Assembly: GCA_037129925.1 (NCBI GenBank)
Contig: JBAXTZ010000015.1
Coordinates: 1 to 64,000 of the forward strand
DNA: 64,000 nt
Direction: 5' to 3'
Source of the DNA: Bacillota bacterium
GTDB taxonomy: Bacteria; Bacillota; Negativicutes; JBAXTZ01
This document shows, piece by piece, positions 39,508 to 64,000 of this stretch. Every line of letters begins with the position of its first letter. Positions within the stretch are counted from its first letter, which is position 1. The notes under the pieces were generated by a model, which was not told where the DNA came from, searched no databases, and was given only the letters and a program-made list of their open reading frames with translations. The translations under genes were made by a program, and so were the position numbers.

Positions 39508-40747
39508 TTAACGCAAGTCCAAGCCGGTCGGCCAATTCTACTGCGGCATAACTCGGAGCGCTTACGGCGCACACCAGTCCCACTGGTACACGGCGAATTT
39601 TTTCCAGCAGTTCGACACTGACGCGCGACGATAACAACAGGATTTTCGCCTCCTGAACAACATCGTTGATAACCAAAGCACCGATTGCCTTATCGAGCGC
39701 GTTATGCCGGCCGATATCTTCAAAAAAACTTAACAAATTCCCCTTATCGTCAAAAAAACCAGCGGCGTGGGCAGCGCCGGTACGGCGAAAAATCACTTGC
39801 TGCTCAAAAAACTTTTGTTGAAGTTGTTGCATAAAAGAAATTTCCGGACGGATAAATTCACGAGGACGTTCCAACAGCTCCTGCTCGTTACGAAATAACG
39901 CCTGATATTCGCAGTTGTTATTCCGTTCCAAGTGCATTATATCTTTCATATCCGCCAACCGCCCTGTTGAATAACCCCAGCCAATCAGCAGTTCGCGGAC
40001 ATTTACCGGCGTACATAAAAACCGCTGTTCGTCCGGTGTGTGGAGTACTACCGTTTGTTCGACAATCAATTCATCCTGCGCAACCGTTGTTATGCCGTTC
40101 CGGTAGCGACTGATTTTGCGGGCGACAACCGCTGACGGTTCAGCTTGACAAAAGTTGTTGTAATCAGCTGGCGTATTAATATTTTCGATACTGCGCCCGT
40201 TTTGCAAGACAACACGCTTGACCAAGCCGCTGTCAGCAAGCGCCTTCGCCCGGCGAATGTTGTTCTGCATCAATTCATTGATAACCACTAGCGACCGTTT
40301 GCTATATAGCGCATATAACGGTTCCAAACGACCATTGTTTTCCGGCATAACCGCGATACAATCGCAGGTATTTGCCGCTAACAGCTGTTTGAACAAACTC
40401 ACGTCGATTTTCGGCGAGTCCACGGCTACGACAAACACCGTTTCGTGCTTTGCCGCCCGCAATCCAGCGCTCATTCCTGCAAGTGGTCCAAAATCAACCC
40501 GCTCATCAACCACCATTCGACAACCTGCAACCACGAAATTCTGGTTTTGATTGATACTTATTATAATGTCCGTAAACAAGCTTTTTAATTGCTCGCTCAG
40601 GTATTCTACCGCAATTTTACCATCGTATTCCAACAGCGCTTTGTCGCTCCCCATCCGTGAGCTTCGCCCGCCAGCGAGAATGACTACTGAGCAATTATCG
40701 AAAGCTAACATTTTGCACGCTCCAATAAAATAATAAAGCAACGCCAA
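39434..40747 (-). CDS. fdhD: MobA-like molybdenum-cofactor guanylyltransferase fused to formate dehydrogenase accessory sulfurtransferase FdhD
   Basis: The N-terminus is MobA-like (VVILAGGRSSRMGSDKALL). The C-terminus is FdhD-like (EDIGRHNALDKAIG and the Cys-containing loop FLCTPVNV). Confidence 0.7.
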   Translation of the reverse strand: MALLYYFIGACKMLAFDNCSVVILAGGRSSRMGSDKALLEYDGKIAVEYLSEQLKSLFTDIIISINQNQNFVVAGCRMVVDERVDFGPLAGMSAGLRAAKHETVFVVAVDSPKIDVSLFKQLLAANTCDCIAVMPENNGRLEPLYALYSKRSLVVINELMQNNIRRAKALADSGLVKRVVLQNGRSIENINTPADYNNFCQAEPSAVVARKISRYRNGITTVAQDELIVEQTVVLHTPDEQRFLCTPVNVRELLIGWGYSTGRLADMKDIMHLERNNNCEYQALFRNEQELLERPREFIRPEISFMQQLQQKFFEQQVIFRRTGAAHAAGFFDDKGNLLSFFEDIGRHNALDKAIGALVINDVVQEAKILLLSSRVSVELLEKIRRVPVGLVCAVSAPSYAAVELADRLGLALIGFFRDNRYNFYNDKETDHENFNR

Positions 40748-49439: not shown

Positions 49440-50282
49440 TTACCCCAATTCAAACGTTGTTACGCCAAAAATTTTTTCAATAGCCAACGCCGGTTCGCCA
49501 TTATTATACATTCGCGCAGTCGCAAATACCGGTTGCAACTGGTGCTGCTCCGCCAATTTTACCGCTGCCGCGTTGGTTTCCGGTACATCGAGAAATATCT
49601 GTTCCCCGGACCTGTCTTTGGTCAGCGCCAAAAACAACTGTTCGGCAATATCCGCATTATCGGCGAATAGCGGTCCGATTTTATAGCCACTGCGGCACCG
49701 GCGAATAACGCCATAACCGCAAATGCCGTCATCTATATACACAACAGTCTGTGTTCCCGGTTGGCAAAACCACTTATCGAGAAAACTCTCCCGCCCTGCC
49801 GGAAAACACTGGCGATCGTAAGCACAAATATCAGCAAAGTTTTCTTGCCCGATTACCCGAACTGCCGGGTTTTGAAAGCTGGTAGAATTACCCGCCAGCC
49901 CGCCATAACGAAAATTGCTATAAGCCAATTTGAAACCGGCGGTAGCATAGTTTTTCACCTTCGCCAGCACTCCGTCTTGACCGATATTATAGCCGTGCAA
50001 ATATTTTAACGCCACTTCGGCTAACGCCGGACCAACCGTTCCGCCGCGCTTATCACTTACGACAATAAAAAAACCAACGAAACCAAATTTTTCCGGGCCA
50101 TAGCGCACCGCCGAAATCGCCCCGATTGGCCGCTCGTCTTCCCACGCCATGAAAAATCCGTTCGGGTCGGTCGCAAAAAATACTTCCGCGTCAGATAGTC
50201 CGGGATTCCAGCCCTCAGTTGCCGCCCAATCAATGGCAACATCCATGTCGGCTCTGGTCATGTTTTTAATAGTAAAGCTCAT
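49440..50282 (-). CDS. GNAT family acetyltransferase (two-domain, YitH-like)
   Basis: 280 aa with GNAT motifs in the N-terminal half. Confidence 0.5.
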   Translation of the reverse strand: MSFTIKNMTRADMDVAIDWAATEGWNPGLSDAEVFFATDPNGFFMAWEDERPIGAISAVRYGPEKFGFVGFFIVVSDKRGGTVGPALAEVALKYLHGYNIGQDGVLAKVKNYATAGFKLAYSNFRYGGLAGNSTSFQNPAVRVIGQENFADICAYDRQCFPAGRESFLDKWFCQPGTQTVVYIDDGICGYGVIRRCRSGYKIGPLFADNADIAEQLFLALTKDRSGEQIFLDVPETNAAAVKLAEQHQLQPVFATARMYNNGEPALAIEKIFGVTTFELG

Positions 50283-50390
50283 GTTAACCTCGAATTTTCC
50301 TTTTCATTATAGCATTATCCACCCCGAACGACTTCTTTTTTTTACAGTAATGCTATATAATGATGGAGAAATAATTTGAAGTGAGGAAAA

Positions 50391-50813
50391 ATGAAAAAAA
50401 TAATTGCACTTATCCTGTTTTGTTTATTCGCTTTTTCAACAACAGCAGTATTCGCCGAAAGCCCGACCATAGGCTATATGAATCGCGAAACCATTATTTC
50501 CCAAAGCAAACGAATCAGTGCAGGCGCTCAAGAACTAATTAACTTTAGTAATCAAATGGTAGCTGATTTTGAACGTGAGAAAGTCGGTTTATCCAATAGT
50601 GACTTGCAAGTAAAAGCTCAAGCCTATCAAGCTCAAATCGATATGCATGTTCAAGCCGCTGAAGAGCAACTAAACATCAACCTGCGCATGGCTTCGAGAA
50701 CAGTTGCCAAGAAACTTGGTTTAAGCGTAGTTACCGTAGCGAGCGTCATGGTATATGGTGGACGCGATATTACTCAGGATATAATCGACACGATTGATGC
50801 CGTACAGGATTAA
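50391..50813 (+). CDS. skp: OmpH/Skp-like periplasmic chaperone
   Basis: 140 aa with a signal peptide and a coiled-coil-rich OmpH-like sequence. Confidence 0.6.
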   Translation: MKKIIALILFCLFAFSTTAVFAESPTIGYMNRETIISQSKRISAGAQELINFSNQMVADFEREKVGLSNSDLQVKAQAYQAQIDMHVQAAEEQLNINLRMASRTVAKKLGLSVVTVASVMVYGGRDITQDIIDTIDAVQD

Positions 50814-50826
50814 TGCCAAAATAAAT

Positions 50827-50862
50827 CCCGCTTTGAAAAAATCAAAGCGGGTATTTTTTTTT
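50827..50862 (+). terminator. Rho-independent terminator
   Basis: cccgctttga aaaaa tcaaagcggg, followed by T10. Confidence 0.8.
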
Positions 50863-50881
50863 GTTGCACAAGTACGGGTAT

Positions 50882-51901
50882 TTATTTCGGGGTATATAGC
50901 ACCTCGTTTACCAAAGGTCGGCCATCGATATAACAGCGGATATTCTCCATCGTAGTATCGGCGATGTTCGTTAACGCTTCCTGGGTGAAGAAGGCTTGAT
51001 GCGCGGTTACGATAACATTTGGAAAGGTCATCAGCCGCGACAACACGTCGTCGGTGATAACGTCATCCGAGCAGTCTTCAAAAAAATAATCGCTCTCTTC
51101 TTCATAAACATCCAATCCGGCAGCGCCGATTGCGCCGCTTTTCAAACCTTCGACAAAATCTTTCGTATTGACTAATTGGCCGCGACTGGTATTGATGAGC
51201 ATAACGCCCGGTTTCATCTTGCTGATGCTTTCAGCGCTGACCAGATATTCCGTTTCTTTAGTCAGTGGGCAGTGCAGACTGATAATGTCCGAATCGCGAT
51301 ATAGCTCCGGCAACGTAACATACTCAAAGCCAATAGCTTTGGCGGCTTGCTCATCCGGATAAACATCATAGCCCAGCACTTTCACGCCTAAGCCGACCAA
51401 ACTCTTAATCAACACTTTGGCAATCTTGCCGGTGCCGATAATCCCGCAGGTTTTGCCATTCATATCAAACCCCAGCAACCCACCCAACGCAAAGTTCCCT
51501 TCCCGGGTACGGTTGTAGGCGCGATGGATGTGGCGGTTGAGCGCCAACATCAAACAAAGCGCGTGTTCGGCAACCGCATACGGCGAGTATGCCGGCACTC
51601 GCACGATTTTTAGTTTATTTTGCGCCGCCCGTAAGCTAACATTGTTAAAACCGGCGCAGCGCAGCGCCAAAATCCGCACGCCATTCGCATAAAGCGCATC
51701 GACTATCTCACGGTCCACCCGGTCGTTTACAAACACGCACACCGCGTCACTGCCTTTAGCTAACGATACGTTGTCCAGACTCAAACGACCTTCGAAAAAC
51801 TTAAAGGAAAACCCATAGCTGGCATTTTCTGGCGCATCCAACTGCTTCTTGAAAAACTCAATATCATACTGTTTACTGCTGAAAAATGTTACCTTAAACA
51901 T
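50882..51901 (-). CDS. ldhA: D-lactate dehydrogenase / D-isomer-specific 2-hydroxyacid dehydrogenase
   Basis: 339 aa. It has an NAD site (GIIGTGKIAKVLIKSL) and the catalytic Arg/Glu/His triad (INTSRG...AHQA). Confidence 0.7.
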   Translation of the reverse strand: MFKVTFFSSKQYDIEFFKKQLDAPENASYGFSFKFFEGRLSLDNVSLAKGSDAVCVFVNDRVDREIVDALYANGVRILALRCAGFNNVSLRAAQNKLKIVRVPAYSPYAVAEHALCLMLALNRHIHRAYNRTREGNFALGGLLGFDMNGKTCGIIGTGKIAKVLIKSLVGLGVKVLGYDVYPDEQAAKAIGFEYVTLPELYRDSDIISLHCPLTKETEYLVSAESISKMKPGVMLINTSRGQLVNTKDFVEGLKSGAIGAAGLDVYEEESDYFFEDCSDDVITDDVLSRLMTFPNVIVTAHQAFFTQEALTNIADTTMENIRCYIDGRPLVNEVLYTPK

Positions 51902-51917
51902 ATCGGCCCCCCCAAAA

Positions 51918-52718
51918 TTATTTCACGTAGCTTTTGTAGATTTTAGTGTATGTACCGTCACTTTTAATTTTCAATAACGCCTCGTCAATTTTATCAATCA
52001 ACTCCTGATCTGCTTTGGCACTTTTCTTGGAAAAAGCGATGAAAAATTTAACAGCTGGACTTGCCGACGGGGTCAGTTTTTTTAACGTATTGACCGGTTT
52101 ATCCATTGCCTGAATTTCAAATTCGTAAGCCATGTCATATTCCAATAGCATATCGGCTTGTTTATCAACCACTTTTTGGATGTTTTCGCGCAGCGAGTTG
52201 CTTTGTTCTACATGAATAATACCATCATCGATGGCGCTGTCGCAAGCCCCGTTGCCAAAACAATAGCCCTTAATCGTAGCCACTTTGTTATTTCCCAGTT
52301 TCGTAAAATCGCCGCTGAAACTGATTTTCGAATCTGGAAGTACAAAGAAACTGGCATTATCTTCGGCCAAAGCGGTTTTAGTATAAGTCATAAACGTAGC
52401 GCGCTCATCGGTATATACCGGACTTAACAAACCGTCGATTTCACCAGCCTGCGCCATCCGCATCAAGTCAGCCCATGGGTAGAGTTTGAAGTTAACTTCC
52501 ACACCGACACGCTTACAAGCTTCGGTTACTGTTTCCACAAATACGCCTTTCGCCACGCCGTCTGTTGTATAGGTAAACGGCTTGGAATCTTCAATTCCTA
52601 CAAGCAGCGTTACCGGTTTTGACGTAACATCCGGCACCGTGCCGCAGCCCGCCAGTATTGCAACGCAACAACAAACAGCCATCAATCCCAGCCATAACGA
52701 ATATGGTTTTTTAGTCAC
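51918..52718 (-). CDS. Amino-acid ABC transporter substrate-binding lipoprotein (family 3)
   Basis: A GTG start is proposed at rc 52716-52718, preceded by a GGAGGA RBS. The lipobox LAGCG is present. The ORF track extends to 52820. Confidence 0.55.
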   Translation of the reverse strand: MTKKPYSLWLGLMAVCCCVAILAGCGTVPDVTSKPVTLLVGIEDSKPFTYTTDGVAKGVFVETVTEACKRVGVEVNFKLYPWADLMRMAQAGEIDGLLSPVYTDERATFMTYTKTALAEDNASFFVLPDSKISFSGDFTKLGNNKVATIKGYCFGNGACDSAIDDGIIHVEQSNSLRENIQKVVDKQADMLLEYDMAYEFEIQAMDKPVNTLKKLTPSASPAVKFFIAFSKKSAKADQELIDKIDEALLKIKSDGTYTKIYKSYVK

Positions 52719-52752
52719 GATAATCTTCCTCCATTTCCGCAATCTATTTGAT

Positions 52753-55437
52753 TCATGATTGGATTTTTTCGATACGCACTGCGCAGACCTTGTATTCGGG
52801 AATTTTGGCGATTGGATCAATTGTTGAATTGGTCAGCACATTCGCGCTACCTTGGGCAAAATGAAATGGCATAAACACAATGTCTTGTTCAATAATATCC
52901 GTAACTCGTACAGTTGTTTCAATCTGCCCGCGCCGGGACAGTACCCGCACCAATTCACCGTCAATCAAGCCCATTTTGCCGGCTGTCGCCGGATTGATTT
53001 CAATATAGGAAGCTGGCGACAACTCGTTCAATCCGGCAACTCTGCCAGTCATCGAGCGGGTATGGTAGTGGTAGAGATTTCTTCCGGTTGTCAATAGAAG
53101 CGGATATTCAGCGTCCGGCAATTCTTTACTTGGAACATATTCAGCCGGAACAAATACGCCTTTACCACGCGAAAAACTACCGACATGCAAAACCTTTGTC
53201 CCCTTGTGCTGTTTGTCCGGGCAGGGCCACTGTAAACCCTTTTGCTCCAACCGGTGATAGTTTATGCCGCCGTAAATTGGCGTGAGCGCGGCAATTTCAT
53301 CCATGATTTCCGAGGCATCGGCGTATTCCGTCGGATAGCCGAGCGCGTTCATCAATTCAATAAGAATCCGATAATCAGTTTTCGCGGTGCCGGGCGGCAA
53401 CACTGCCGGGCGTATTTTCTGCACCCGCCGTTCAGTGTTGGTAAATGTTCCGTCTTTTTCCGCCCAAACCGCTGCCGGCAATACCACATCGGCTAACTTT
53501 GCGGTCTCGGTCAGGAAGATGTCTTGTACTACCAGAAGCTCCAAAGCTCCCAGTGCCTTCGCCACATGGTTAGTGTCCGGATCGGATACCATCGGATTTT
53601 CACCCATGATATATAACAATTTAATCTCACCCTGTACCGCAGCCGTCAACATTTCCGTTAAGGTCAATCCGGGGACGCCAGATAAGTTCACACTCCAGGC
53701 TTGTGCGAATTTTGCCAGAACTTCCGGATTCGCCACTTTTTGATAACCCGGAAAATCACCCGGTAACGCGCCCATATCGCATGACCCTTGCACGTTATTC
53801 TGTCCCCGTAATGGATTAACACCAGAATATTCTTTGCCGATCTGCCCGCAGAGCAGCGCCAGATTAGAAGTCGACATTACCCCCTGGGTACCGGTAGAAT
53901 GTTGAGTTATGCCCATAGCATAATAGATTGCAGCATTGTTAGCAGTGGCATACATAATCGCCGCTTCACGCAACTTGGCTTCATCGATCCCGCAAATTTC
54001 CGCGACAAGTTCCGGCGGGTAGTTCTTGACAATCGCCTCAAGTTCAGAAAAATTTTCGGTTCGCTCGGCGATAAATTGCCGGTTGTGCAAGTTTTCTGCG
54101 ATGATAATATTCATCAGACCATTAAATAGCGCAACATTTGTTCCCGGCCTGATTTGCAAAAACACATCGGCATTTTCCGCCAGTTCGATTTTTCGCGGTT
54201 CAGCGACGATTAATTTTGCGCCGCGTTTCTTGGCTTGTTTTATCTTGGCGCCAATTACCGGATGAGTTTCGGTCGTATTCGAGCCGCAGACAAAAATCAC
54301 ATCCGCGCCGGTAACTTCCTCGATGCTGTTAGTCATTGCGCCGCTGCCCAGAGTAGTTGCCAGACCGGCTACGGTCGACGCGTGGCACAACCGGGCGCAA
54401 TGATCGACGTTGTTTGTACCAATGACCGCGCGAAATAATTTCTGGAACAAATAGTTTTCTTCATTAGTAACCCGCGCCGAAGACAATCCGGCACAGGCAT
54501 CCGCGCCATTCGCCTGCTTAATACTACGGATTTTTTTTACCACCAGTTCCAGCGCTTCTTCCCAGCTACTTTCTTCGAGAACGCCATTTTTCCGAATCAG
54601 CGGCTGTGTCAGCCGATCCGGATGGTTGATAAATTCATAGCCAAACTTGCCTTTGACACACAACATTCCATTGTTCGCCGGGCCATTCGCCGGAACAACA
54701 TCGACCACCGTATTGCCTTTTACCCGCAGATACAGTTCACAACCGACACCGCAGTATGGGCAAATTGTCCGGGTTGATTTCACTTCCCATTCGCGAAACT
54801 TGGTTTTTTTCTTGGGACTGAGCGCCCCGACCGGGCAATTGGAGACACAGTTACCACAGGATACGCAAGTAGATTGTTCAATATTTTTATCATTATCGGC
54901 GCCGACAAAGGTGTCGAAGCCGCGGTTCACCAAACCAATGGCATTAGAGCATTGCAACGACGAGCAGACAGCGACACAGCGCTGGCAGAGTATGCATTTG
55001 TTGTTGTCGCGAAAATAAAACGGATTACTGCTGTCTATAGCATACTCAATATTTTTGCCGGAATAAACAACGGTATCTACCTCGTACTCATAACAGTAAT
55101 CCTGCAATTTGCAATTACCGGCTTTTTCACAGGTCAAACAGTCGATTTTATGAGTGGACATAATCAGTTGCAACACATTTTTGCGGGCGTTCCGCACCGC
55201 CACAGTGTCGGTATGCACAACCATATTAGCGCTCACCGGATAAACGCAAGCCGTTTGGAAGCCGCGCACCCCCTCAACTTCTACGATACACATCCGGCAG
55301 GCGCCGATTTCGTTAATATCTTTTAAGTAACACAAAGTCGGAATACCGATACCGGCGCTACCGGCGGCACGCAGTACTGTATAGTCCGCTGGTACCGAAA
55401 GCATCCTTCCGTCTATTTCTATTGATACTTTATTCAT
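52753..55437 (-). CDS. fdhA: Formate dehydrogenase catalytic (alpha) subunit, Cys-type, molybdopterin/tungstopterin
   Basis: An N-terminal 2Fe-2S region plus 4Fe-4S clusters, and the NVDHCARLCHASTVAG motif with Cys where FdhF carries Sec. The likely start is MNKVSIEIDG (55437) after a GGAGG RBS. Confidence 0.85.
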   Translation of the reverse strand: MNKVSIEIDGRMLSVPADYTVLRAAGSAGIGIPTLCYLKDINEIGACRMCIVEVEGVRGFQTACVYPVSANMVVHTDTVAVRNARKNVLQLIMSTHKIDCLTCEKAGNCKLQDYCYEYEVDTVVYSGKNIEYAIDSSNPFYFRDNNKCILCQRCVAVCSSLQCSNAIGLVNRGFDTFVGADNDKNIEQSTCVSCGNCVSNCPVGALSPKKKTKFREWEVKSTRTICPYCGVGCELYLRVKGNTVVDVVPANGPANNGMLCVKGKFGYEFINHPDRLTQPLIRKNGVLEESSWEEALELVVKKIRSIKQANGADACAGLSSARVTNEENYLFQKLFRAVIGTNNVDHCARLCHASTVAGLATTLGSGAMTNSIEEVTGADVIFVCGSNTTETHPVIGAKIKQAKKRGAKLIVAEPRKIELAENADVFLQIRPGTNVALFNGLMNIIIAENLHNRQFIAERTENFSELEAIVKNYPPELVAEICGIDEAKLREAAIMYATANNAAIYYAMGITQHSTGTQGVMSTSNLALLCGQIGKEYSGVNPLRGQNNVQGSCDMGALPGDFPGYQKVANPEVLAKFAQAWSVNLSGVPGLTLTEMLTAAVQGEIKLLYIMGENPMVSDPDTNHVAKALGALELLVVQDIFLTETAKLADVVLPAAVWAEKDGTFTNTERRVQKIRPAVLPPGTAKTDYRILIELMNALGYPTEYADASEIMDEIAALTPIYGGINYHRLEQKGLQWPCPDKQHKGTKVLHVGSFSRGKGVFVPAEYVPSKELPDAEYPLLLTTGRNLYHYHTRSMTGRVAGLNELSPASYIEINPATAGKMGLIDGELVRVLSRRGQIETTVRVTDIIEQDIVFMPFHFAQGSANVLTNSTIDPIAKIPEYKVCAVRIEKIQS

Positions 55438-55448
55438 CTTCGCCTCCG

Positions 55449-57338
55449 TCAATTTATCTCGATAGCTTTCGGCGGGCATTTGCCGATACATACACCGCAC
55501 TTCACACACTTATGGGTATCAATTAAATAACCGCGCTCGCGGTCACCGCTGATCGCGCCGACTGGACAGAACTTGGCGCACAGACCGCATTTTTTGCATG
55601 TTTCGGCAATTATCCGGTAATTGATCAACTGCTTGCATACTTTAGCAACGCACTTCCGGTCGTTGATGTGCTGCTCATATTCATCGCGAAAAAATCGCAG
55701 GGTACTCAACACCGGATTTGGCGCTGTTTGTCCAAGTCCGCACAACGAGGTTGATTTGATAACTTCGGCAAGTTCTTGCAAACTCTCAATGTCACCGGCT
55801 TTACCTTCGCCGTTGGTAATTCGCTCCAGTATTTCCAGCATCCGCTTAATCCCAATCCGGCACGGCGGACACTTCCCGCAGGATTCCTCGACAGTAAACT
55901 CCAAAAAGAATTTGGCGATATCCACCATACAGGTATCTTCGTCCATAACTATCAAGCCGCCCGAACCCATCATCGAACCGATAGCTATAAGCGAATCATA
56001 ATCCATCGGCGTGTCCAGCAATGCCGCTGGAATACAACCGCCGGACGGGCCGCCGGTTTGCGCCGCTTTAAATTGCTTACCATTCGGAATGCCGCCGCCG
56101 ATATCAAAAATAATTTCCCGCAAGGTCGTACCCATGGGTATTTCTACCAAACCGGTATTATTTATTTTACCACCGACTGCAAAAACTTTGGTTCCTTTGC
56201 TTGTTTCTGTCCCAAAAGCGCTGTACCACTGGCTGCCCCGCAGGATAATACTGGCAATATTGGCATAAGTTTCGACGTTGTTAATCAACGTCGGCTTTTG
56301 CCATAACCCCTTAATCGCCGGGAAAGGCGGGCGCGGGCGCGGCGTTCCCCGCTGGCCTTCAATCGAAGCAATGAGCGCCGTTTCTTCACCACAGACGAAT
56401 GCTCCAGCGCCCAATCGGATGCCCAGATTAAAAGCAAAGCCTGAACCCATAATATTATCGCCCAGTAAGCCATAGTTTTTGGCTTGAAGAATGGCAAGAC
56501 TTAAGCGCTCCAGTGCAATCGGATACTCAATCCGCACATAAACATAACCCTGATGCGCCCCAATTGCATAACCGGCAAGAATCATTGCCTCAATCAACGC
56601 GTGCGGGTCGCCTTCAAGTACGCTGCGATCCATGAATGCACCCGGGTCGCCCTCGTCAGCGTTGCAAAGCACAAACTTCTCACTTGCACTGCTATTTGCG
56701 GCAAATTGCCATTTTCGGCCGGTCGGAAAACCACCGCCGCCCCGACCGCGCAGCCCGGATGCTGATATTTCCTCAATAACCGCAGCCGGAGTCATGGCAA
56801 ATAGCGCTTTTGCCAGCGCCTTGTAACCGTCAAAAGCAATATATTCATCGATATTTTCCGGATTTATCAGTCCGCAGTTTTTCAACGCCACGCGCATTTG
56901 GTTACTGAAAAATTTGGTGATTTCTGTAGGGTGCTCTGTTTCATCGAGATGCCCGCCGAAGATTCGCTGTACCGGCTGACCGTTTAGCAAATGTTTTTCA
57001 ACGATCTCAGCGACATCGGCAACTTGAACCATTTTATACAGGCAATTTTCCGGATAGATAATAACTACCGGCCCTTGGGCGCACAGCCCCAGACAGCCGC
57101 ATTTTACGATCGCGATACGGTCAGCCAACCCGTGTTTTACAATCTGTTGATTAAATTCATCGATGATTGCCGCCGAATTAGATGAGGCGCAACCAGTACC
57201 GGCGCAAACCATGATATGCGACAAACCATTTGCGGCGATCGTACCGGTTGTACCATCAATAATCGCTTGCGCTCGTCTCAGACCGATTACGGCAAGTGTT
57301 TCACGGCGAATGGTCTCTAATTGTTGTTGTGTTTTCAT
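55449..57338 (-). CDS. NuoF-like flavoprotein (beta) subunit with an N-terminal thioredoxin-like 2Fe-2S domain and a C-terminal 2x[4Fe-4S] domain
   Basis: GGGGFPTG FMN/NADH motifs, the SLCGLG 4Fe-4S region, and a C-terminal CKKCGLCAKFCP...CVKCGVCIGKCP. The likely start is MKTQQQ (57338) after AGGGGGA. Confidence 0.8.
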   Translation of the reverse strand: MKTQQQLETIRRETLAVIGLRRAQAIIDGTTGTIAANGLSHIMVCAGTGCASSNSAAIIDEFNQQIVKHGLADRIAIVKCGCLGLCAQGPVVIIYPENCLYKMVQVADVAEIVEKHLLNGQPVQRIFGGHLDETEHPTEITKFFSNQMRVALKNCGLINPENIDEYIAFDGYKALAKALFAMTPAAVIEEISASGLRGRGGGGFPTGRKWQFAANSSASEKFVLCNADEGDPGAFMDRSVLEGDPHALIEAMILAGYAIGAHQGYVYVRIEYPIALERLSLAILQAKNYGLLGDNIMGSGFAFNLGIRLGAGAFVCGEETALIASIEGQRGTPRPRPPFPAIKGLWQKPTLINNVETYANIASIILRGSQWYSAFGTETSKGTKVFAVGGKINNTGLVEIPMGTTLREIIFDIGGGIPNGKQFKAAQTGGPSGGCIPAALLDTPMDYDSLIAIGSMMGSGGLIVMDEDTCMVDIAKFFLEFTVEESCGKCPPCRIGIKRMLEILERITNGEGKAGDIESLQELAEVIKSTSLCGLGQTAPNPVLSTLRFFRDEYEQHINDRKCVAKVCKQLINYRIIAETCKKCGLCAKFCPVGAISGDRERGYLIDTHKCVKCGVCIGKCPPKAIEIN

Positions 57339-57372
57339 CTGTTCCCCCTGTTTCTCACAAACGCTATCCGGA

Positions 57373-57855
57373 TCATTCATAAAGAGCGAGTATTCGGTCG
57401 ACATCTTTGGGTTCCAACCGTCCATGCACATCTTTGTTTATCGTCAAAACCGGCGCCAAACCACAGGCGCCGATGCACCGGCAAGCTTCGAGCGAAAACT
57501 TTTTGTCCGGCGTGCAATCGCCAACGTTGATACCGAGTTTCTCTTTGAATTTATCCAGCAACGGACCGGAGCCTTTTACATAACAAGCCGTTCCCATACA
57601 AACCGAAATTCGATACTTACCTTTTTCTTTCAATGAAAACTGGCCATAGAAAGTTATGACCCCATATATCTCCGTCATCGGCACGCCATAATGCTCCGAG
57701 ATTATTTCCTGCGCCTCAACCGGCAAATAGCCATACAGCTCTTGCGCCTCGTGTAACACCGCAATCAAGGAGCCTTTGGTGCTTTTGTAGTTTTTGGCAA
57801 TTTCAATCAGTCTTGCCTTTCGTTCATCATAAGTATTTTTACAACAGCAACTCAT
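57373..57855 (-). CDS. NuoE-like 2Fe-2S (gamma) subunit
   Basis: 160 aa with CMGTACYVKG...CRCIGACGLAPV. Confidence 0.8.
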   Translation of the reverse strand: MSCCCKNTYDERKARLIEIAKNYKSTKGSLIAVLHEAQELYGYLPVEAQEIISEHYGVPMTEIYGVITFYGQFSLKEKGKYRISVCMGTACYVKGSGPLLDKFKEKLGINVGDCTPDKKFSLEACRCIGACGLAPVLTINKDVHGRLEPKDVDRILALYE

Positions 57856-57870
57856 TTGTTCACCTTCACA

Positions 57871-59103
57871 TTAATTTTGTTCGGTAGCTACTAGTTTTTT
57901 ACCCCGCCCGACTAGTAACGGGAAGACCATGGCAATGATCAGCGATACACCAGTGATCACGAAAGCTGTCGAATAACCATAAGAACCATGCATACTCGAA
58001 TAAAGAATCGGACCGACAATTGAGCCAACACTCCAAGCAGTCAGGATAAACCCGTAAATTGTACCAAGATATTTGCTGCCGAAGGAATCGGCGACAAATG
58101 CCGGCATCGTCGAAAAACCACCACCATAGCAAGAGTAAATGTAGCAAGCCACGACCATAAAGACCGCGAGATTGGAAATATAGGGCAGCACCAAGAACAG
58201 TAGCGCTTGTGATGCAAAGAAAATCAAAAACACATTTCTACGCCCAATCGCATCCGACATCCACGACCAGAACAAGCGTCCCAGTCCGTTAAATACTGAG
58301 AATACGCCGATGATGATGCCGGCTTGAGTGGGCGTTTGTTTGAATATCTCCTGAACCATCGGTGATGCTTGTGAGATTAAAGCAATTCCCGCCGAGATAT
58401 TCAAAAACAATGTTATCCAAAACAACCAAAAATCTTTGGATGCGACTGCAACAGCTGGTTTGACCGAGGCTGCGGTCGCTATTTTCTTTTTCCCAGCCGG
58501 TGCCGCTACCGCATAGCCTTCCGGTGGATTAACCATGAATTGCGCGGCAATCAATGTCAGCACAACGAAGATTGCACCGAGCAAGTAAAAAGTCGCGCTC
58601 ATCCCGATAACTTTCAGTACCATCGGCACCAAAGTTGTCATAATAAAAGCGCCGATCCCAAAACCCATGACCGCGATACCGGTAATCATCCCGCGCTTAT
58701 CCGGGAACCACTTGACCAAGACCGATATCGGTGTGATGTAACAAAGTCCGTTACCTAAACCGGCCAGTACACCGTAGGCAATATAAATCGTCCAAATCGA
58801 AACATTGGTAACGCCCCAACCAGTTAGCAGCGTACCCAATCCAAACAGCAGCGCGCCGATTGTTGCCACAAACCGCGGCCCTTTTCTGTCGACAACCATT
58901 CCGCCAAGTGCGGCAGCTATTCCCAAACTTCCGATAGCGATTGTAAAAACTATCGTAACCTCAGTCAGCGACCAGTGTCCCAACTGTTGCAACGGCTTGG
59001 TGAAAATGCTCCAACCATATACCGTACCGAGACAAATTTGCATTATCACTCCGAATGTTGCTATCAGCCAGCGATTGGGGTAGCTTTTGTTGTTTTTATC
59101 CAC
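57871..59103 (-). CDS. MFS transporter, oxalate/formate antiporter (OFA) family
   Basis: 410 aa, 12 TM helices, and an OFA-like N-terminus. Confidence 0.65.
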   Translation of the reverse strand: MDKNNKSYPNRWLIATFGVIMQICLGTVYGWSIFTKPLQQLGHWSLTEVTIVFTIAIGSLGIAAALGGMVVDRKGPRFVATIGALLFGLGTLLTGWGVTNVSIWTIYIAYGVLAGLGNGLCYITPISVLVKWFPDKRGMITGIAVMGFGIGAFIMTTLVPMVLKVIGMSATFYLLGAIFVVLTLIAAQFMVNPPEGYAVAAPAGKKKIATAASVKPAVAVASKDFWLFWITLFLNISAGIALISQASPMVQEIFKQTPTQAGIIIGVFSVFNGLGRLFWSWMSDAIGRRNVFLIFFASQALLFLVLPYISNLAVFMVVACYIYSCYGGGFSTMPAFVADSFGSKYLGTIYGFILTAWSVGSIVGPILYSSMHGSYGYSTAFVITGVSLIIAMVFPLLVGRGKKLVATEQN

Positions 59104-59288
59104 GTCATTTTCTCCTTTGTTTATGGATTGTTAATCCTTTGTCCAAATTGTAGCACAAGCCACTCAACAAATTCTCAACAACAACAAAACTCACATAAAT
59201 CAGCAGTATTAATGAGAACGCTTTCATTTACTGAAGATTTTCTGTGAGTTTTCGGTATCGGTATAACTGCGAACAACCGCCCGTCAAG

Positions 59289-60458
59289 CTAAAAAAATTC
59301 AGCTTCGACTTTCTTCAGGTGCTTTTCCGTTAATAATTTAATCATCTTTTTAACAACAGTTTTTCTGATTTCCAGCTCGATCGGCAAATCCGGGTCAAAA
59401 TGCGACATATTGAACTTGGCACCGACCAAAAACTCAATACAATCCGAATTAAGCAACAAGTTACACAGCAAACCTGCCGGATCCTCATTGTTTTCAATTC
59501 CGTTTTCCAAGTAGTCAGCAGTACGGCTCAAGGTCAGTATTCCTTCGGTAACCAAATCGATTCCGTCGATTAGCGAACAGGGCGGCAAATCGCCAACTCC
59601 GCGCACCATCCCTTTTATCGGCCGCTTCAACTCGCGGGCGATCATATTGGCGGTCGAACCGCCGCACACTGCCTTTTTGCCTTGAAAGTCAGCCAACCGT
59701 TCGGCATATTCGCTGTCCCGGCTTTCATAATACGGTAAGCCGGTAAACACCATCGCTTTACGCGGCTGGCGAAAATGCAACACCATCGCCGCGGCATCGT
59801 CTTTGAGCTTATAATCTCTTTCTTTTGTAGTAGCTGTTTCCACCATTGCTTTAGCCAGCTGATTACTGGGTACAAATGGATTCTTAATTATTTCCTCGAC
59901 TAAAAACCTGATCAAACCTTCCCGCTTCCAGCCAAGTGGTAGCGCCCGGCTACCCATACCGGCTTGAGTCACGCCGTCCGAACAAAAAATCAATCGGTCG
60001 CCCGGCTGTAACTGGAGACGATAGAGTTGTAATTGGCGATTGGAAAAATTTTTAGATTCAATTATTTCGGCTTCCGGTTCAAACACCGAGGCGCCGCGCA
60101 GCCAAATAAACTGCGGATTGCCTTCCTCGATTATACGGACAGCGCCATTATCATAACAATCGATAATTGAAAAAGTGGCGTAACTAATTTTCCGCACCTG
60201 ACAAATTGGCAGCGAGTTCATTATTACTTCGGATGCCCGCAAAATATCTTTACCAGCCGCGACAAATTTCAGTAACATCGTCGCGGTCATCTGCGACAAA
60301 ATATTAGCCTTGATTCCCGAACCCAGACCATCGGACAAAGTTGCAATCAACCGGCCTTGTTCGGGGTATCTTTTGGACATATAGGTATCGCCAAAGGCGT
60401 TTTGCCCCCACTTTTTGAGTTGATAACAACTAATATCAATAAATAGCGGTTCTTTCAT
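59289..60458 (-). CDS. PP2C/SpoIIE-like serine phosphatase with a C-terminal uncharacterised domain (HfsC-like)
   Basis: The N-terminal 230 aa are a PP2C fold (ATLSDGLGSG, FCSDGV). The C-terminal ~150 aa are unknown. Confidence 0.5.
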   Translation of the reverse strand: MKEPLFIDISCYQLKKWGQNAFGDTYMSKRYPEQGRLIATLSDGLGSGIKANILSQMTATMLLKFVAAGKDILRASEVIMNSLPICQVRKISYATFSIIDCYDNGAVRIIEEGNPQFIWLRGASVFEPEAEIIESKNFSNRQLQLYRLQLQPGDRLIFCSDGVTQAGMGSRALPLGWKREGLIRFLVEEIIKNPFVPSNQLAKAMVETATTKERDYKLKDDAAAMVLHFRQPRKAMVFTGLPYYESRDSEYAERLADFQGKKAVCGGSTANMIARELKRPIKGMVRGVGDLPPCSLIDGIDLVTEGILTLSRTADYLENGIENNEDPAGLLCNLLLNSDCIEFLVGAKFNMSHFDPDLPIELEIRKTVVKKMIKLLTEKHLKKVEAEFF

Positions 60459-60466
60459 AACGGCGA

Positions 60467-60973
60467 TTAACTCTCCTTATCAGAATCGTAGCTCTCAGCT
60501 ATCGAACTAAGCAGCAGTTCGGTATCAACCATATGCTCACCTAATAAAAATGCGATATTCTGAACCACCGCGATGTTCTTGGCGATAACTTCGCGGGCTT
60601 GCTTGGCAATTTCTTCGCGGGGTTGCTCAAATTTGGTGATGTCGGTAGCTTGAATACCGACTATCCGGTTTAACTCAATGGAGAATATCTTTAAATCATA
60701 TATTTTGTCGTTATAGCTATAGCGCTTTATGTGGATATTTTCACCGGTAGCCAGCACTTCACGCAAATTATCTACACTGGGAAATATTCGTTCGACTGAA
60801 GCTCCCTGAATTCCTTCATCGAACGAATTAAAAACATCCAGCATATCAATCGCCCACATTTTCACAAACGCCTCGTTGGCTTCGATTACTTTAAGTCGTT
60901 CATCTACAACCACCATCGCTGACGGGATTTTTTGCAACAAAGCCGAGGAATAATCGTCAAAGTCTTTTTTCAT
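60467..60973 (-). CDS. PAS-domain sensor protein (no kinase domain)
   Basis: 168 aa with an N-terminal PAS-like fold. Its start overlaps the upstream ferredoxin gene by 4 nt. Confidence 0.45.
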   Translation of the reverse strand: MKKDFDDYSSALLQKIPSAMVVVDERLKVIEANEAFVKMWAIDMLDVFNSFDEGIQGASVERIFPSVDNLREVLATGENIHIKRYSYNDKIYDLKIFSIELNRIVGIQATDITKFEQPREEIAKQAREVIAKNIAVVQNIAFLLGEHMVDTELLLSSIAESYDSDKES

Positions 60974-61221
60974 TTCCGCCTCAATTCTTCAAATATTTCT
61001 TCTAACTTAAGGGCATCCACCTCGAAAAACTCCTTTTGATTTACGGTAATATACGGCCCTTTATCACATTTGCCGGTGCATAACGAGCCGACGAGATCGA
61101 TTGCGATATTCAGTTTGTTGGCGCTGATAAAGTCCTCGATCATTTTCAGGTTTTCGGCATTGCCCCGCGCATAGCAAGCGCTACCAAGGCAAATTGATAT
61201 TTCACTTTTTTCAATACTCAT
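60970..61221 (-). CDS. Thioredoxin-like [2Fe-2S] ferredoxin (NuoE-fold, HfsA-like)
   Basis: 83 aa with CLGSACYARG...CTGKCDKGP. Confidence 0.6.
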   Translation of the reverse strand: MSIEKSEISICLGSACYARGNAENLKMIEDFISANKLNIAIDLVGSLCTGKCDKGPYITVNQKEFFEVDALKLEEIFEELRRK

Positions 61222-61300
61222 TTACTCACTCCTAAATTTATTTGCCTAACGGTCGGTCTACTGCACAAATTATAACAAAATATATTTATTGGTTCAATCA

Positions 61301-62260
61301 TTATTGGCCGGTTATTTCAGTGGTACGCTGGGTTATTCCAACAGCAGCACGACTATCGTTGGATGCCGAAAAATACTCCGCGATGGATTTCGAAAACTGA
61401 CGATACTGATTTTCCAGCGCCAACTTAATTTTTCTCGCCCATGGATAGTGCTTGTCCGCCAAAAATTGACCGGTATAGGTATAAAATGCTTGCACCGCCT
61501 GCTCAACATTGTCGGGGTCGATAACGCCAAAACGGTCTACCGCCTCGACAAAGTTGCGACAATCTAACTTTATCCCGGCGCTTGACAGTTTATATTCACC
61601 ATCGGCTATTGCAAGGGCGCTGGCAAAACCATAATTCATTAACTCTTTTTTGACATAATAGATATTAAGCTGCAATAATTTTTCCGCTTTATCGTCTTCC
61701 TGGTCAGCAAACAAATCAGCGATTATTTGTTGTTTGGATGCAGTTTGGTTATAAAGCAAATATATCAACAACTCCTCGGCTTTAGGCGTCCAGGCTATCG
61801 ACTGCTCAACACCATTTATTGAGTAAGCGGTATATCCAAAAGTCTTTATTTCTAATATTTTTCGTCGCCGGGTGACACTAGTATCACTGTTTTTCCCCAG
61901 CAATCGCCCCAGCCGCTCTAACACTGGCGCCAATTTGCCCGGTTCAAGCGGCTTCATTAAATAACTGATAGCGTTTAATTCAAACGCTTCGATTACAAAC
62001 TGATTGTGCGCGGTTACAAAAACTATTTCTATCTGCTCGAGTGCTGAAAGTAATGCTGCCGCCAATTCCAGACCAGTCATATGCGGCATGTCGATGTCTA
62101 GGAAAGCCACATCGGCGACCAAGCCGTTGTTCACTTCTTTCAACGCTTTAGTCGGACTAATAAATCTACCCACAATCTCCACTAAACCAGTTCGCATTAA
62201 ATGAAAACATAAAAATTCCATTGCGATTGGCTCGTCATCAACTACTATTGCCCTGATCAT
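61301..62260 (-). CDS. Response regulator (CheY-like receiver) with an uncharacterised C-terminal output domain
   Basis: The receiver domain has DD...D...K residues (VVDDEP, FLDIDMP). The C-terminal 190 aa are not recognised. Confidence 0.6.
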   Translation of the reverse strand: MIRAIVVDDEPIAMEFLCFHLMRTGLVEIVGRFISPTKALKEVNNGLVADVAFLDIDMPHMTGLELAAALLSALEQIEIVFVTAHNQFVIEAFELNAISYLMKPLEPGKLAPVLERLGRLLGKNSDTSVTRRRKILEIKTFGYTAYSINGVEQSIAWTPKAEELLIYLLYNQTASKQQIIADLFADQEDDKAEKLLQLNIYYVKKELMNYGFASALAIADGEYKLSSAGIKLDCRNFVEAVDRFGVIDPDNVEQAVQAFYTYTGQFLADKHYPWARKIKLALENQYRQFSKSIAEYFSASNDSRAAVGITQRTTEITGQ

Positions 62261-62303
62261 TGCTCCTCCACTGTTAACTATTTACTGACAACTGCTAACC
62301 GGC

Positions 62304-64000
62304 TCAGCACATCGGTATTTTAGGGTCGCAAGGTGGTTTCAGGCAGCATTTGCCACGAGTGCGGATCCAGGCAACGCGTTGTTGAACGTTTTGCGATGGT
62401 TCGATATTATAATGGCTGGCGCTGTAGTCGGCGTTCTCAACCGGATTGATTGTATTTCCCACGGCAACTGCCGCCATTGGCGCCGAACTGCGCATCATCC
62501 GCGAACGTTGTGTGCCATTACCCGAATTGTCGTCTTCTTCCGTACCGTTGTTGGAATTGTTATTGCTGTCAGCAGCGGCGCTCAAGGTCATTAATCCGGG
62601 AACCGGGTCACTGCCCCCCGATGGTGTCGCGCCGACAACGGTCAAGGAGCCGTTGACATAGTTAAAAGCGTAATTCGGCGAACCCGCGCCTTCGGGCGTG
62701 ATGGCATAGCGTCCGGCGCCGCTGGATTGGCTGGCAGTTGTGGAGAACTGCACTTGAGGATCCAGGTCGGACGGTCCGTCACCGTTCACAAAACCATTGT
62801 AGCTGGCGCTAAACTGCGGATTTGGGTAACCAACCAACCGTAATGCGTTATTCGCAGTAACTGTAAGCGTTGCCGGGGTTACCGTAAACTGAGCCGCTAC
62901 GCCACCGATTGTATAATATTCTGCGCTTAGACCACTAATATATGTTGTATCATATTTACCGGCATTGGTAGTCTGAGCAATTTCCGTAGTGTAAACCGGC
63001 GAACCGCTGGCAGTTATCGTCTCGAGCGTAACCGGGTCAACCACTTTGTAGCCGGTGCCTTGAAGATGTAGTCGGTCATAAATAGTGCTGTCGCCATAAA
63101 CCGAAGTGCTGATAAGCGGCATAAATTCCGCCAGCTCCAGCGCGGTAGCCGAATACTGATATATTCCCTCGGCTCCGGCGGTTCCGGGATGATTATTGAC
63201 ATAAGTAGCCATATTAGCAATCGCCGAACCCAGTGTCCGGGCGCCGGTTTTGCCATAGTCAGTTGCCGTTAACGACTGGCTAAATGCGCTATTTGCGGTA
63301 GCATCTTCATAGATGAACAACACTCCGCCAGCGCTCCTGGTAACAGTGCCATAATTTTCGTGATTAGCGAAAACCAGTCCATTTGCAGTGCCGTTCAAAT
63401 CAGTAGTTGTTGCCAATAAAATGTTGTTAGTGGCACCAGTCGCGGTAATTGCAGCTCCGTTAGCAACAATAATGCTGTCATCTGCCTTCAGCGTAATGTT
63501 ACCAGCGGCAGTAAGCGTACCGTCAACTCTGACACTCCCAGTTGTTGCTCCGGTTTGGGCAGTGAGTGTCAGCGCTTTTACAGCGCTAACATCATTAATT
63601 TCAACGTCCCCGCTGTTAGAAATAGTGAGATTTCCGGCTGAACTAATATTTAATTCTTCACCGGCGCTAATATTGTTCAGTGTGATATCGCCAGTTGTCG
63701 ATGAAAGGTTTATGTATCCGGATAAATTGCGATTGCTCAGACTTATGCTGGCAGAAGTTATTGAAAGATTGGTAGTGGTTTGAATTGCTTCGTAGTTATC
63801 AAATGAAGCTGTTTGGATAATTGCCGAGTCGGCGCTGACGATCTTTCCGGCGGCAACATCCAAGCTGTTGTTGGCGGTCAGCGCTACATTCGCCAATGAT
63901 GACAGATCGTCAGTAACATTAATATCATTCGCTATTAAGTTGACATTTCCAGTAAAAGGCACATGATTCGCTAATCCTAGATTAGTCGTATCGATAGTGT
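62304..64000 (-). CDS. Large repetitive secreted/surface protein (C-terminal part; gene continues beyond the window end), with a filamentous-haemagglutinin-like repeat region and a Cys-rich C-terminal tail
   Basis: The reading frame stays open to the window edge. It has degenerate Thr/Ser/Asn/Gly-rich repeats (NITLKADDSIIVANGAAITATG...) and ends ...RTRGKCCLKPPCDPKIPMC. Confidence 0.4.
   Translation of the reverse strand, partial: TIDTTNLGLANHVPFTGNVNLIANDINVTDDLSSLANVALTANNSLDVAAGKIVSADSAIIQTASFDNYEAIQTTTNLSITSASISLSNRNLSGYINLSSTTGDITLNNISAGEELNISSAGNLTISNSGDVEINDVSAVKALTLTAQTGATTGSVRVDGTLTAAGNITLKADDSIIVANGAAITATGATNNILLATTTDLNGTANGLVFANHENYGTVTRSAGGVLFIYEDATANSAFSQSLTATDYGKTGARTLGSAIANMATYVNNHPGTAGAEGIYQYSATALELAEFMPLISTSVYGDSTIYDRLHLQGTGYKVVDPVTLETITASGSPVYTTEIAQTTNAGKYDTTYISGLSAEYYTIGGVAAQFTVTPATLTVTANNALRLVGYPNPQFSASYNGFVNGDGPSDLDPQVQFSTTASQSSGAGRYAITPEGAGSPNYAFNYVNGSLTVVGATPSGGSDPVPGLMTLSAAADSNNNSNNGTEEDDNSGNGTQRSRMMRSSAPMAAVAVGNTINPVENADYSASHYNIEPSQNVQQRVAWIRTRGKCCLKPPCDPKIPMC

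Follow-up and report, generated by a model that had tools for sequence, protein, structure and literature searches.

A 64,000-nt stretch from the genome of an uncultured member of the Negativicutes, Bacillota (contig JBAXTZ010000015.1, positions 1 to 64,000; hereafter the window) carries on its minus strand the genes of a formate dehydrogenase (FDH), preceded by three genes that encode a thioredoxin-like (Trx-like) ferredoxin, a PAS protein and a PP2C phosphatase. Sequence comparison indicates that this locus is very probably a signalling cassette of the hfs type, which in its canonical form includes the sensory [FeFe] hydrogenase HydS, and which here has kept its transducer genes, lacks all H-cluster parts and stands ahead of a transporter and a HydBC-type FDH. 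We slightly favour the further reading that a degenerate hfs/HydS cassette lies ahead of the FDH operon, in which a major facilitator superfamily (MFS) transporter is encoded together with a HydC/HydB-type NADH/ferredoxin module and a Cys-type FdhA, and that this cassette would tune the electron sink. The order of the eight minus-strand genes, from the response regulator (RR) through ferredoxin, PAS, PP2C, MFS, NuoE and NuoF to FdhA, and their coordinates are as given in a preliminary description of this DNA; they are listed here in the direction of transcription together with three predicted transcription signals.

61301..62260, minus strand: RR; Pfam Response_reg, with a weak Trans_reg_C match (E 0.007)
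61269..61297, minus strand: predicted sigma-70-type promoter-like site, TTGAAC, 17 nt, TGTTATAAT (consensus scan)
60970..61221, minus strand: 83-aa Trx-like [2Fe-2S] ferredoxin; Pfam 2Fe-2S_thioredx (PF01257), four-Cys pattern in the sequence
60467..60973, minus strand: 168-aa PAS protein; Pfam PAS_8
59289..60458, minus strand: 389-aa SpoIIE/PP2C phosphatase, ortholog of HfsC; Pfam SpoIIE/PP2C
59186..59252, minus strand: predicted long hairpin with U-rich tract, putative terminator or attenuator (minimum free energy (MFE) fold)
59147..59155, minus strand: predicted extended −10 promoter-like element, TGcTACAAT (sequence inspection)
57871..59103, minus strand: OFA-family MFS transporter of the monocarboxylate (SfMCT) type; NCBIfam NF049980
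57373..57855, minus strand: NuoE/HydC-type [2Fe-2S] subunit; Pfam PF01257 at full length
55449..57338, minus strand: NuoF/HydB-type flavin subunit; Pfam N-terminal Trx-like 2Fe-2S domain and two C-terminal 4Fe-4S motifs
52753..55437, minus strand: Cys-type FdhA with a NuoG-like Fe-S domain at its N-terminus; Pfam Fer2_4, NADH-G_4Fe-4S_3, Molybdop_Fe4S4, Molybdopterin and Molydop_binding

The three regulatory genes are tightly arranged: the ferredoxin stop codon overlaps the PAS start by 4 bp (ATGA), GAGG lies upstream of that start, and the PP2C gene begins 8 nt past the PAS stop, preceded by AAGGAG. A near-identical copy of the locus (L002) is present in assembly GCA_964573965.1.

The PAS protein corresponds to the C-terminal part of HydS

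Over its whole length, the 168-aa PAS protein can be aligned with the C-terminus of HydS (residues ~403-570 of the 572-583-aa proteins) and is 50-54% identical to the last ~168 aa of HydS proteins. Its Met1 is a conserved internal Met of HydS, found in the segment “...SMCVSYMRK...” three residues past the fourth Cys of the C-terminal [4Fe-4S] motif, and its own C-terminal LGEHMVDTELLLSSIAE motif is nearly identical to that in full-length HydS. The predicted structure consists of a PAS core (predicted local distance difference test scores 83-94) followed by two long C-terminal helices, and this model matches PAS sensors with C-terminal signalling helices, namely Aer2, YF1 and FixL. Thus, among the features of group C sensory [FeFe] hydrogenases, the C-terminal PAS domain and the output helix are present, while the N-terminal 2x[4Fe-4S] domain and the C-terminal four-Cys motif (PF04060) are both absent from the protein. 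Pfam returned PAS_8 only and did not find the H-cluster domain Fe_hyd_lg_C in it. The possibility had been raised that the PAS protein might be a degenerate HydS still carrying an H-cluster; it is indeed a HydS remnant, but one without the H-cluster domain and with zero Cys residues. Having no metal-binding Cys, it therefore cannot bind H2 or any Fe-S cluster.

H-cluster homology elsewhere in the window was searched by tblastn against its six frames, using three HydS proteins, two HfsD-type hydrogenases and one HydA as queries. Apart from generic 4Fe-4S motifs in the NuoF and FdhA genes, the only match in the 64 kb was to the PAS region (60973-60473), and no trace of a second ferredoxin or of an HfsD hydrogenase was seen in any frame. 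The earlier statement that no H-cluster protein is present is therefore borne out for the whole window.

The PAS protein has moved further from the canonical forms than the neighbouring phosphatase would lead one to expect. When the window is compared with the three closest canonical cassettes, the ratio of PAS to PP2C identity is 0.85, whereas it is 1.06-1.10 among three canonical pairs with similar PP2C identity (63%). This excess suggests a burst of change (re-adaptation) after the loss of the other HydS domains, followed by renewed constraint.

Further PAS-only genes of this kind were sought by a word-indexed search and by a full HMMER scan of 1.84 billion representatives. The former gave 17 matches, and all except the window's own cluster lay on contigs of at most about 6 kb, mostly below 3 kb. 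The latter gave 341 matches, and most of the best 150 were HydS proteins of 560-630 aa. Two short candidates, P0367 and P0307, were rejected as fragments, as both begin at the edges of contigs shorter than 1 kb. No other complete PAS-only HydS remnant was found among the best 150 of the 341 HMMER matches, the window's own cluster being the only verified complete case, and the variant thus appears to be rare.

Comparison with the canonical five-gene cassette

About 90 fetched loci encoding relatives of the window's PP2C served as the comparison set. The canonical cassette consists of a Trx-like ferredoxin, the sensory [FeFe] hydrogenase HydS, a PP2C phosphatase, a second Trx-like ferredoxin and a ferredoxin-dependent hydrogenase, and this five-gene set was almost invariant across L003-L082 and L084-L088. 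Wherever enough upstream sequence was available, the ferredoxin match lay ~1.25 kb upstream of the PAS match with the H-cluster domain between them, the sole exception being L083, and the gene between the two match positions encodes a 572-583-aa HydS with Fer4 (2x[4Fe-4S]), Fe_hyd_lg_C, FeS (PF04060) and PAS domains. The window's 83-aa ferredoxin is the ortholog of the small ferredoxin that precedes HydS, with 32-53% identity in most of ~80 loci. Both small ferredoxins are fixed components of the cassette, and a description of them was not found in the hfs literature consulted. The carriers are metagenome-assembled genomes (MAGs) labelled Gastranaerophilales/Melainabacteria, Alphaproteobacteria (several from rumen samples), Margulisiibacteriota, Spirochaetia and others.

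Downstream of the phosphatase, about 70 of these ~90 loci have, on the same strand, the second Trx-like ferredoxin and a 486-489-aa [FeFe] hydrogenase. In the window this second ferredoxin and the HfsD/HydA2-type hydrogenase are missing, and the MFS, NuoE, NuoF and FdhA genes are found there instead. NuoE, NuoF and HydA genes trail the cassette on the same strand in two of the compared loci, in L069 directly after the phosphatase and in the other after the second ferredoxin and hydrogenase. The preliminary description had seen in the ferredoxin-PAS-PP2C trio a resemblance to the regulatory set of sensory [FeFe] hydrogenases; this is strengthened to homology, with the same gene order as in the hfs/HydS cassette. 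Its labels “HfsA/C/D-like” have to be corrected, as the phosphatase is HfsC and the PAS protein corresponds to the C-terminus of HfsB/HydS.

In the hfsABCD cluster of Thermoanaerobacterium and the corresponding cluster of R. albus, the PAS-carrying hydrogenase and the Ser/Thr phosphatase are thought to control the adjacent ferredoxin-dependent hydrogenase (PMC11837493, PMC5707799, PMC6776011, PMC10055695). The literature consulted yielded no account of a module derived from HydS and free of the H-cluster, nor of a formate dehydrogenase preceded by an hfs-type cassette.

The phosphatase and its conserved C-terminal domain

The window's phosphatase is of the HfsC type, with the conserved C-terminal domain, and its gene directly follows the PAS-encoding gene as in the hfs cassette. 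It belongs to a highly conserved family of ~388-aa proteins with >7000 clusters, in which 15 aligned relatives are 55-63% identical to it over the full length, and it shows the PPM fold and the invariant acidic motifs with the metal-binding Asp residues. The C-terminal domain is Rossmann-like, with a near-invariant “GKKA-x-CGGTTAN” loop and invariant K262, A263, G266, G267, T269, A270 and N271; it belongs to no Pfam family, and a Pfam search at E up to 10 gave nothing meaningful. A nucleotide-type ligand for this domain would be our guess. When JGI metagenome contigs were scanned with the phosphatase, only 6 distant loci (52-55% identity) and no intermediates were obtained. In the canonical loci L084, L086, L087 and L088, no called gene encodes a STAS or HATPase_c domain.

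The transporter and the formate dehydrogenase

The MFS protein passes the NCBIfam equivalog model for the SfMCT L-lactate transporter (NF049980; 390 bits against a cutoff of 320), while it stays below the cutoff of TIGR00890 and reaches 192 bits with the OxlT model TIGR04259, whose cutoff is 335. Its matches to the two proteins in the PDB are about equal (SfMCT 142 bits, OxlT 136 bits). The Arg of transmembrane segment 8 that aligns in both SfMCT and OxlT is kept, and a Trp aligns with the OxlT Lys of the “AAKATAS” segment, a residue that we take to be K355, the second oxalate-binding residue. A divalent oxalate substrate is thus unlikely, and the substrate could be formate, lactate or another monocarboxylate. 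Of the earlier designation as an OFA formate/oxalate transporter, the family assignment stands; with the SfMCT model passed and Trp at the OxlT Lys position, monocarboxylate transporter is a better name than oxalate/formate antiporter.

The NuoE-like subunit matches the NCBIfam HoxE/NuoE models below their cutoffs. In the PDB, the NuoF-like subunit is matched best by HydB proteins from electron-bifurcating hydrogenases, led by that of Acetobacterium woodii (7q4v_B, 935 bits, residues 40-624), while FdsB-type subunits reach only 381-418 bits and leave both terminal extensions without a match. The Trx-like and 2x4Fe4S extensions reported for it, as in bifurcating HydB, are therefore confirmed by Pfam and by this alignment, and the two subunits together make up a HydC/HydB-type flavin module of bifurcating-type architecture.

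FdhA scores 884 bits with TIGR01591 (cutoff 666), and its reading frame is continuous with no in-frame TGA. Its best PDB match is FdsA of Rhodobacter capsulatus (783 bits), in which the Cys of CARVCH aligns with that of CARLCH in FdhA. We take this Cys to be the molybdenum ligand at the position of selenocysteine (Sec) in Sec-type enzymes, and the description of FdhA as having Cys in place of Sec agrees with the alignment. Clusters of the Bfu family that contain Fdh have already been catalogued, with 82 sequences (PMC9304861), and the FDH itself is an ordinary member of this Fdh-Bfu class.

Directly after FdhA, at 50882-52718, lie a gene for an SBP_bac_3 lipoprotein and one for a D-2-hydroxyacid (lactate-type) dehydrogenase, the latter two genes past FdhA. 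Together with the L-lactate-type transporter, this dehydrogenase may mean that the cluster combines formate and lactate electron sinks. A fusion gene for MobA (molybdenum cofactor guanylyltransferase) and FdhD (FDH sulfurtransferase) is found at 39434-40747, 12 kb from the FDH genes, and the same fusion is present in L089, a related scaffold treated below.

At the other end of the locus, G+C is 42.4% in 60001-62000 (the RR-to-PAS stretch) against 47-49% in the neighbouring 2-kb segments, and the regulatory block may be of foreign origin. Directly upstream of the RR, 62304-64000 holds the 3′ end of a very large gene that continues beyond the window. Its counterpart at 1-3825 of L089 encodes over 2300 aa with TPS and MBG_2 domains, and the product looks like a filamentous-hemagglutinin-type secreted protein.

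The regulatory genes are under purifying selection

The exception noted above, L083, comes from JGI metagenome data and is 84% identical to the locus in nucleotides; this contig has the same architecture as the window and open reading frames (ORFs) of identical length. Ratios of nonsynonymous to synonymous substitution (dN/dS) between the window and L083 were calculated by the Nei-Gojobori method; they are approximate, since dS is 0.7-1.3 and near saturation for some genes.

Ferredoxin: dN/dS 0.032
PAS: dN/dS 0.024
PP2C: dN/dS 0.022
MFS: dN/dS 0.029
NuoE: dN/dS 0.053
RR: dN/dS 0.14

The ferredoxin, PAS and PP2C genes are constrained as much as the enzyme genes and are under strong purifying selection in two species-level lineages, whereas the rate for the RR is about 5 times that of the trio (0.14 vs 0.02-0.03).

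A related lineage has lost the regulatory block

Two ENA scaffolds, L089 and L090, are 83-87% identical to the window in nucleotides and syntenic with it on both sides. There, NuoE comes immediately after the hemagglutinin-like gene, with NuoF, FdhA and the genes for the solute-binding lipoprotein and the 2-hydroxyacid dehydrogenase behind it, and the 4369 bp from the RR through MFS (window 57925-62293) are represented by only 140 bp. Together with the bases after them, these contain, at 3943-4029 of L089 and also in L090, a 29-codon stretch in which RR codons 1-8 are joined in frame to the last ~19 codons of MFS. Insertion of the block in the window lineage was considered and rejected: this in-frame RR-MFS scar shows that the block was deleted in the L089 lineage in one event. 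The FDH genes are intact in that lineage, with dN/dS of 0.05-0.07 between it and the window, and the FDH is therefore probably not dependent on the module.

Predicted transcription signals

The consensus scan for promoters and terminators was not above chance overall (21 sites vs 16.4 expected and 18 vs 13.6), and only sites that are kept in L083 as well are considered here. The 79-bp gap between RR and ferredoxin holds the predicted site TTGAAC-17-TGTTATAAT, which has 10 of 12 consensus matches together with a TG and is retained in L083 while its flanks diverge. The 185-bp spacer between PP2C and MFS is 91% identical to that of L083, compared with 84% for the locus, and is more conserved than the coding DNA around it. 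Its hairpin (59252-59186) has 25 pairs, with 3 compensatory changes and no broken pair relative to L083 and an MFE z score of −1.97. A search of Rfam over 50000-64000 gave no match at E 0.1 or better, which places the hairpin in no described RNA family. The predicted extended −10 element TGcTACAAT lies 44 nt ahead of the MFS start and reads TGaTACAAT in L083.

What the cassette may control

Of hydS, only the part for the C-terminal PAS domain and output helices is left; the second ferredoxin and the hydrogenase that depends on ferredoxin have been lost, and the transporter and FDH genes stand where these two would be. On the reading that we slightly favour, the ferredoxin, the PAS protein and PP2C would still form a signalling unit or complex, one unable to sense H2 itself. 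Its input would most likely be the cellular redox state, perceived through the [2Fe-2S] protein, a PAS ligand or the Rossmann-like domain of the phosphatase, and its output would be the Ser/Thr dephosphorylation of a target not encoded at the locus. HydS-PP2C cassettes are presumed to act on the hydrogenase gene behind them, and by analogy control would here probably fall on the downstream electron-sink module, that is, CO2 reduction to formate and its export, for which control by the trio would be dispensable as far as the enzyme is concerned. Taken separately, this regulatory link between the trio and the FDH is tentative and somewhat doubtful. Still more speculative, and improbable on present grounds, is the specific proposal that the H2 cassette was rewired into a hydrogenase-free redox or formate sensor, in which the ferredoxin would be charged by the FDH module or by the ferredoxin/NADH pool and the PAS protein would relay this state to PP2C, tuning formate production and export.

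Several observations weigh against a regulatory role of the trio at the FDH. The L089/L090 lineage indicates that the FDH probably dispenses with the ferredoxin-PAS-PP2C module. The conserved hairpin with its U-rich tail and the promoter-like element behind it suggest that the regulatory genes and the MFS-FDH genes are separate transcripts, and with separate transcription units the adjacency of trio and FDH may therefore be historical rather than regulatory. Across the nine genes that begin with the RR and end with the solute-binding lipoprotein, Pfam detected neither a kinase nor a STAS-type partner nor any other substrate for the phosphatase, the rest of the window not having been systematically screened. 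The search for H-cluster proteins covers 64 kb, and one encoded elsewhere in the genome could act in trans with the PAS protein. The near-saturation of dS also bears on how closely the selection estimates can be read.

The preliminary description had proposed that the trio may sense redox or formate and control FDH expression through the adjacent RR, which would involve a phosphatase-RR interaction. The RR is indeed adjacent and on the same strand, and the positions D8, D9, D55, T83 and K103, which we take as the key positions of its receiver, are all present (D8, D9, D55 and K103 being invariant in the RR alignment, T83 not). It was also lost with the trio and MFS in the single L089 deletion, although this co-deletion reflects only physical contiguity, and its truncation and the cassette are both common to the window and L083. 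The protein comprises a REC domain, a weak OmpR-type winged helix and a truncated BTAD domain that Pfam did not detect; it has 319 aa, compared with 362-372 aa for every REC-wHTH-BTAD homolog found, so that the last ~50 aa are gone in both the window and L083. A full-length paralog with 46% identity lies on a different contig of GCA_964573965.1, and no histidine kinase is encoded among the genes of 50882-63962. PP2C enzymes act on phospho-Ser/Thr and not on the phospho-Asp of receivers. Such an RR is absent from all of the about 90 canonical cassettes, and it was rejected as a cassette member; a promoter-like site, itself conserved, stands between it and the trio. With its truncation and its faster evolution, these points leave control through the RR unsupported and distinctly improbable, and the RR probably adjoins the module without being part of its circuit.

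The trio might, alternatively, be functional and regulate elsewhere, much as hfsB of Thermoanaerobacterium does; its targets could be genes of global fermentation or redox metabolism, adhE among them, and its place next to the FDH would be a leftover of the hydrogenase site. The strong purifying selection on the trio speaks for this, the terminator-like hairpin and separate promoter-like element before MFS fit it, and so do the intact FDH genes of the lineage without the module. In T. saccharolyticum, deletion of hfsA or hfsB raised the adhE transcript two- to threefold (PMC5707799). On the other side, the cassette stands directly upstream of a catalytic hydrogenase on the same strand in about 70 of about 90 loci, which points to a local functional link that the FDH could have inherited, and the L089 deletion took MFS along with the regulators and thus says little about which genes they serve. 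We consider this alternative unlikely, yet one to be taken seriously. That the PAS and ferredoxin genes are only non-functional debris of a hydrogenase cassette in the course of being lost is hardly credible: two H-cluster genes of the cassette are already gone and a sister lineage deleted the remainder, but in two lineages 16% apart in nucleotides the ORFs are unbroken and equal in length, their dN/dS is 0.02-0.03, the start/stop coupling, the ribosome-binding sites and the promoter-like element have all been retained, and the dS of 0.7-1.3 excludes a recent common sequence from which the window and L083 would be recombinant copies.

Significance for sensory hydrogenase circuits

How putative sensory [FeFe] hydrogenases relay their signal is an unsolved question, and recent work argues against the C-terminal cluster as the relay (PMC13104023). 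The locus amounts to a natural deletion experiment on this system and presents a minimal version of it. Selection on a trio without any hydrogen-binding part suggests that the transducer is functional without H2 sensing, and it directs attention to the small ferredoxin, to the C-terminal helices of the PAS protein and, in the phosphatase, to the uncharacterised Rossmann-like domain. Enzymes of the H2 and formate electron sinks have here been exchanged behind one regulatory cassette, which fits the view of both as interchangeable electron carriers in anoxic communities. If the rewiring proposed above were true, it would be a natural swap of both input and output of a sensory-hydrogenase circuit from H2 to formate, with the transducer kept.

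Comparison with known systems

The closest known systems are the hfsABCD cluster of Thermoanaerobacterium and the hydS-PP2C-hydA2 cluster of Ruminococcus albus, with which the window has in common the ~388-aa PP2C family including its C-terminal domain and the PAS and output-helix module that forms the C-terminus of HfsB/HydS. The gene order, the common strand and the position of catalytic redox-enzyme genes directly downstream are likewise those of the hfs/hydS clusters (PMC11837493, PMC6776011), and the small Trx-like [2Fe-2S] gene in front is found in the hfs-type metagenomic and MAG loci compared. Unlike these clusters, the window lacks the N-terminal 2x[4Fe-4S], H-cluster and C-terminal [4Fe-4S] parts of HydS, and it has MFS and NuoE/NuoF/FdhA in place of the second ferredoxin and HfsD/HydA2. 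In the characterised group C enzyme TmHydS of Thermotoga maritima, a PAS domain follows the C-terminal cluster motif and is the presumed signal carrier (PMC10055695, PMC13104023); this domain is common to both, whereas the window protein begins three residues past the last Cys of that motif and contains no metal-binding Cys.

Partner-switching modules such as SpoIIE-SpoIIAA-SpoIIAB and RsbU-RsbV-RsbW include genes for a STAS antagonist and a HATPase_c kinase, none of which is among the genes of 50882-62260, and the window's PP2C differs from their phosphatases by its extra Rossmann-like C-terminal domain. The MFS protein is similar to both SfMCT and OxlT and differs from OxlT by Trp for Lys. 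As for the enzyme, the flavin subunit has the full HydB domain set, the FMN/NADH site included, of Bfu-family (HydBC-type) FDHs, for example the bifurcating FDH of Clostridium acidurici, while the catalytic subunit is most similar to FdsA of the NAD-dependent FdsGBA of Rhodobacter capsulatus. Compared with either, the window pairs a HydB-type beta subunit with an FdsA-like alpha subunit, and an MFS gene leads the gene run.

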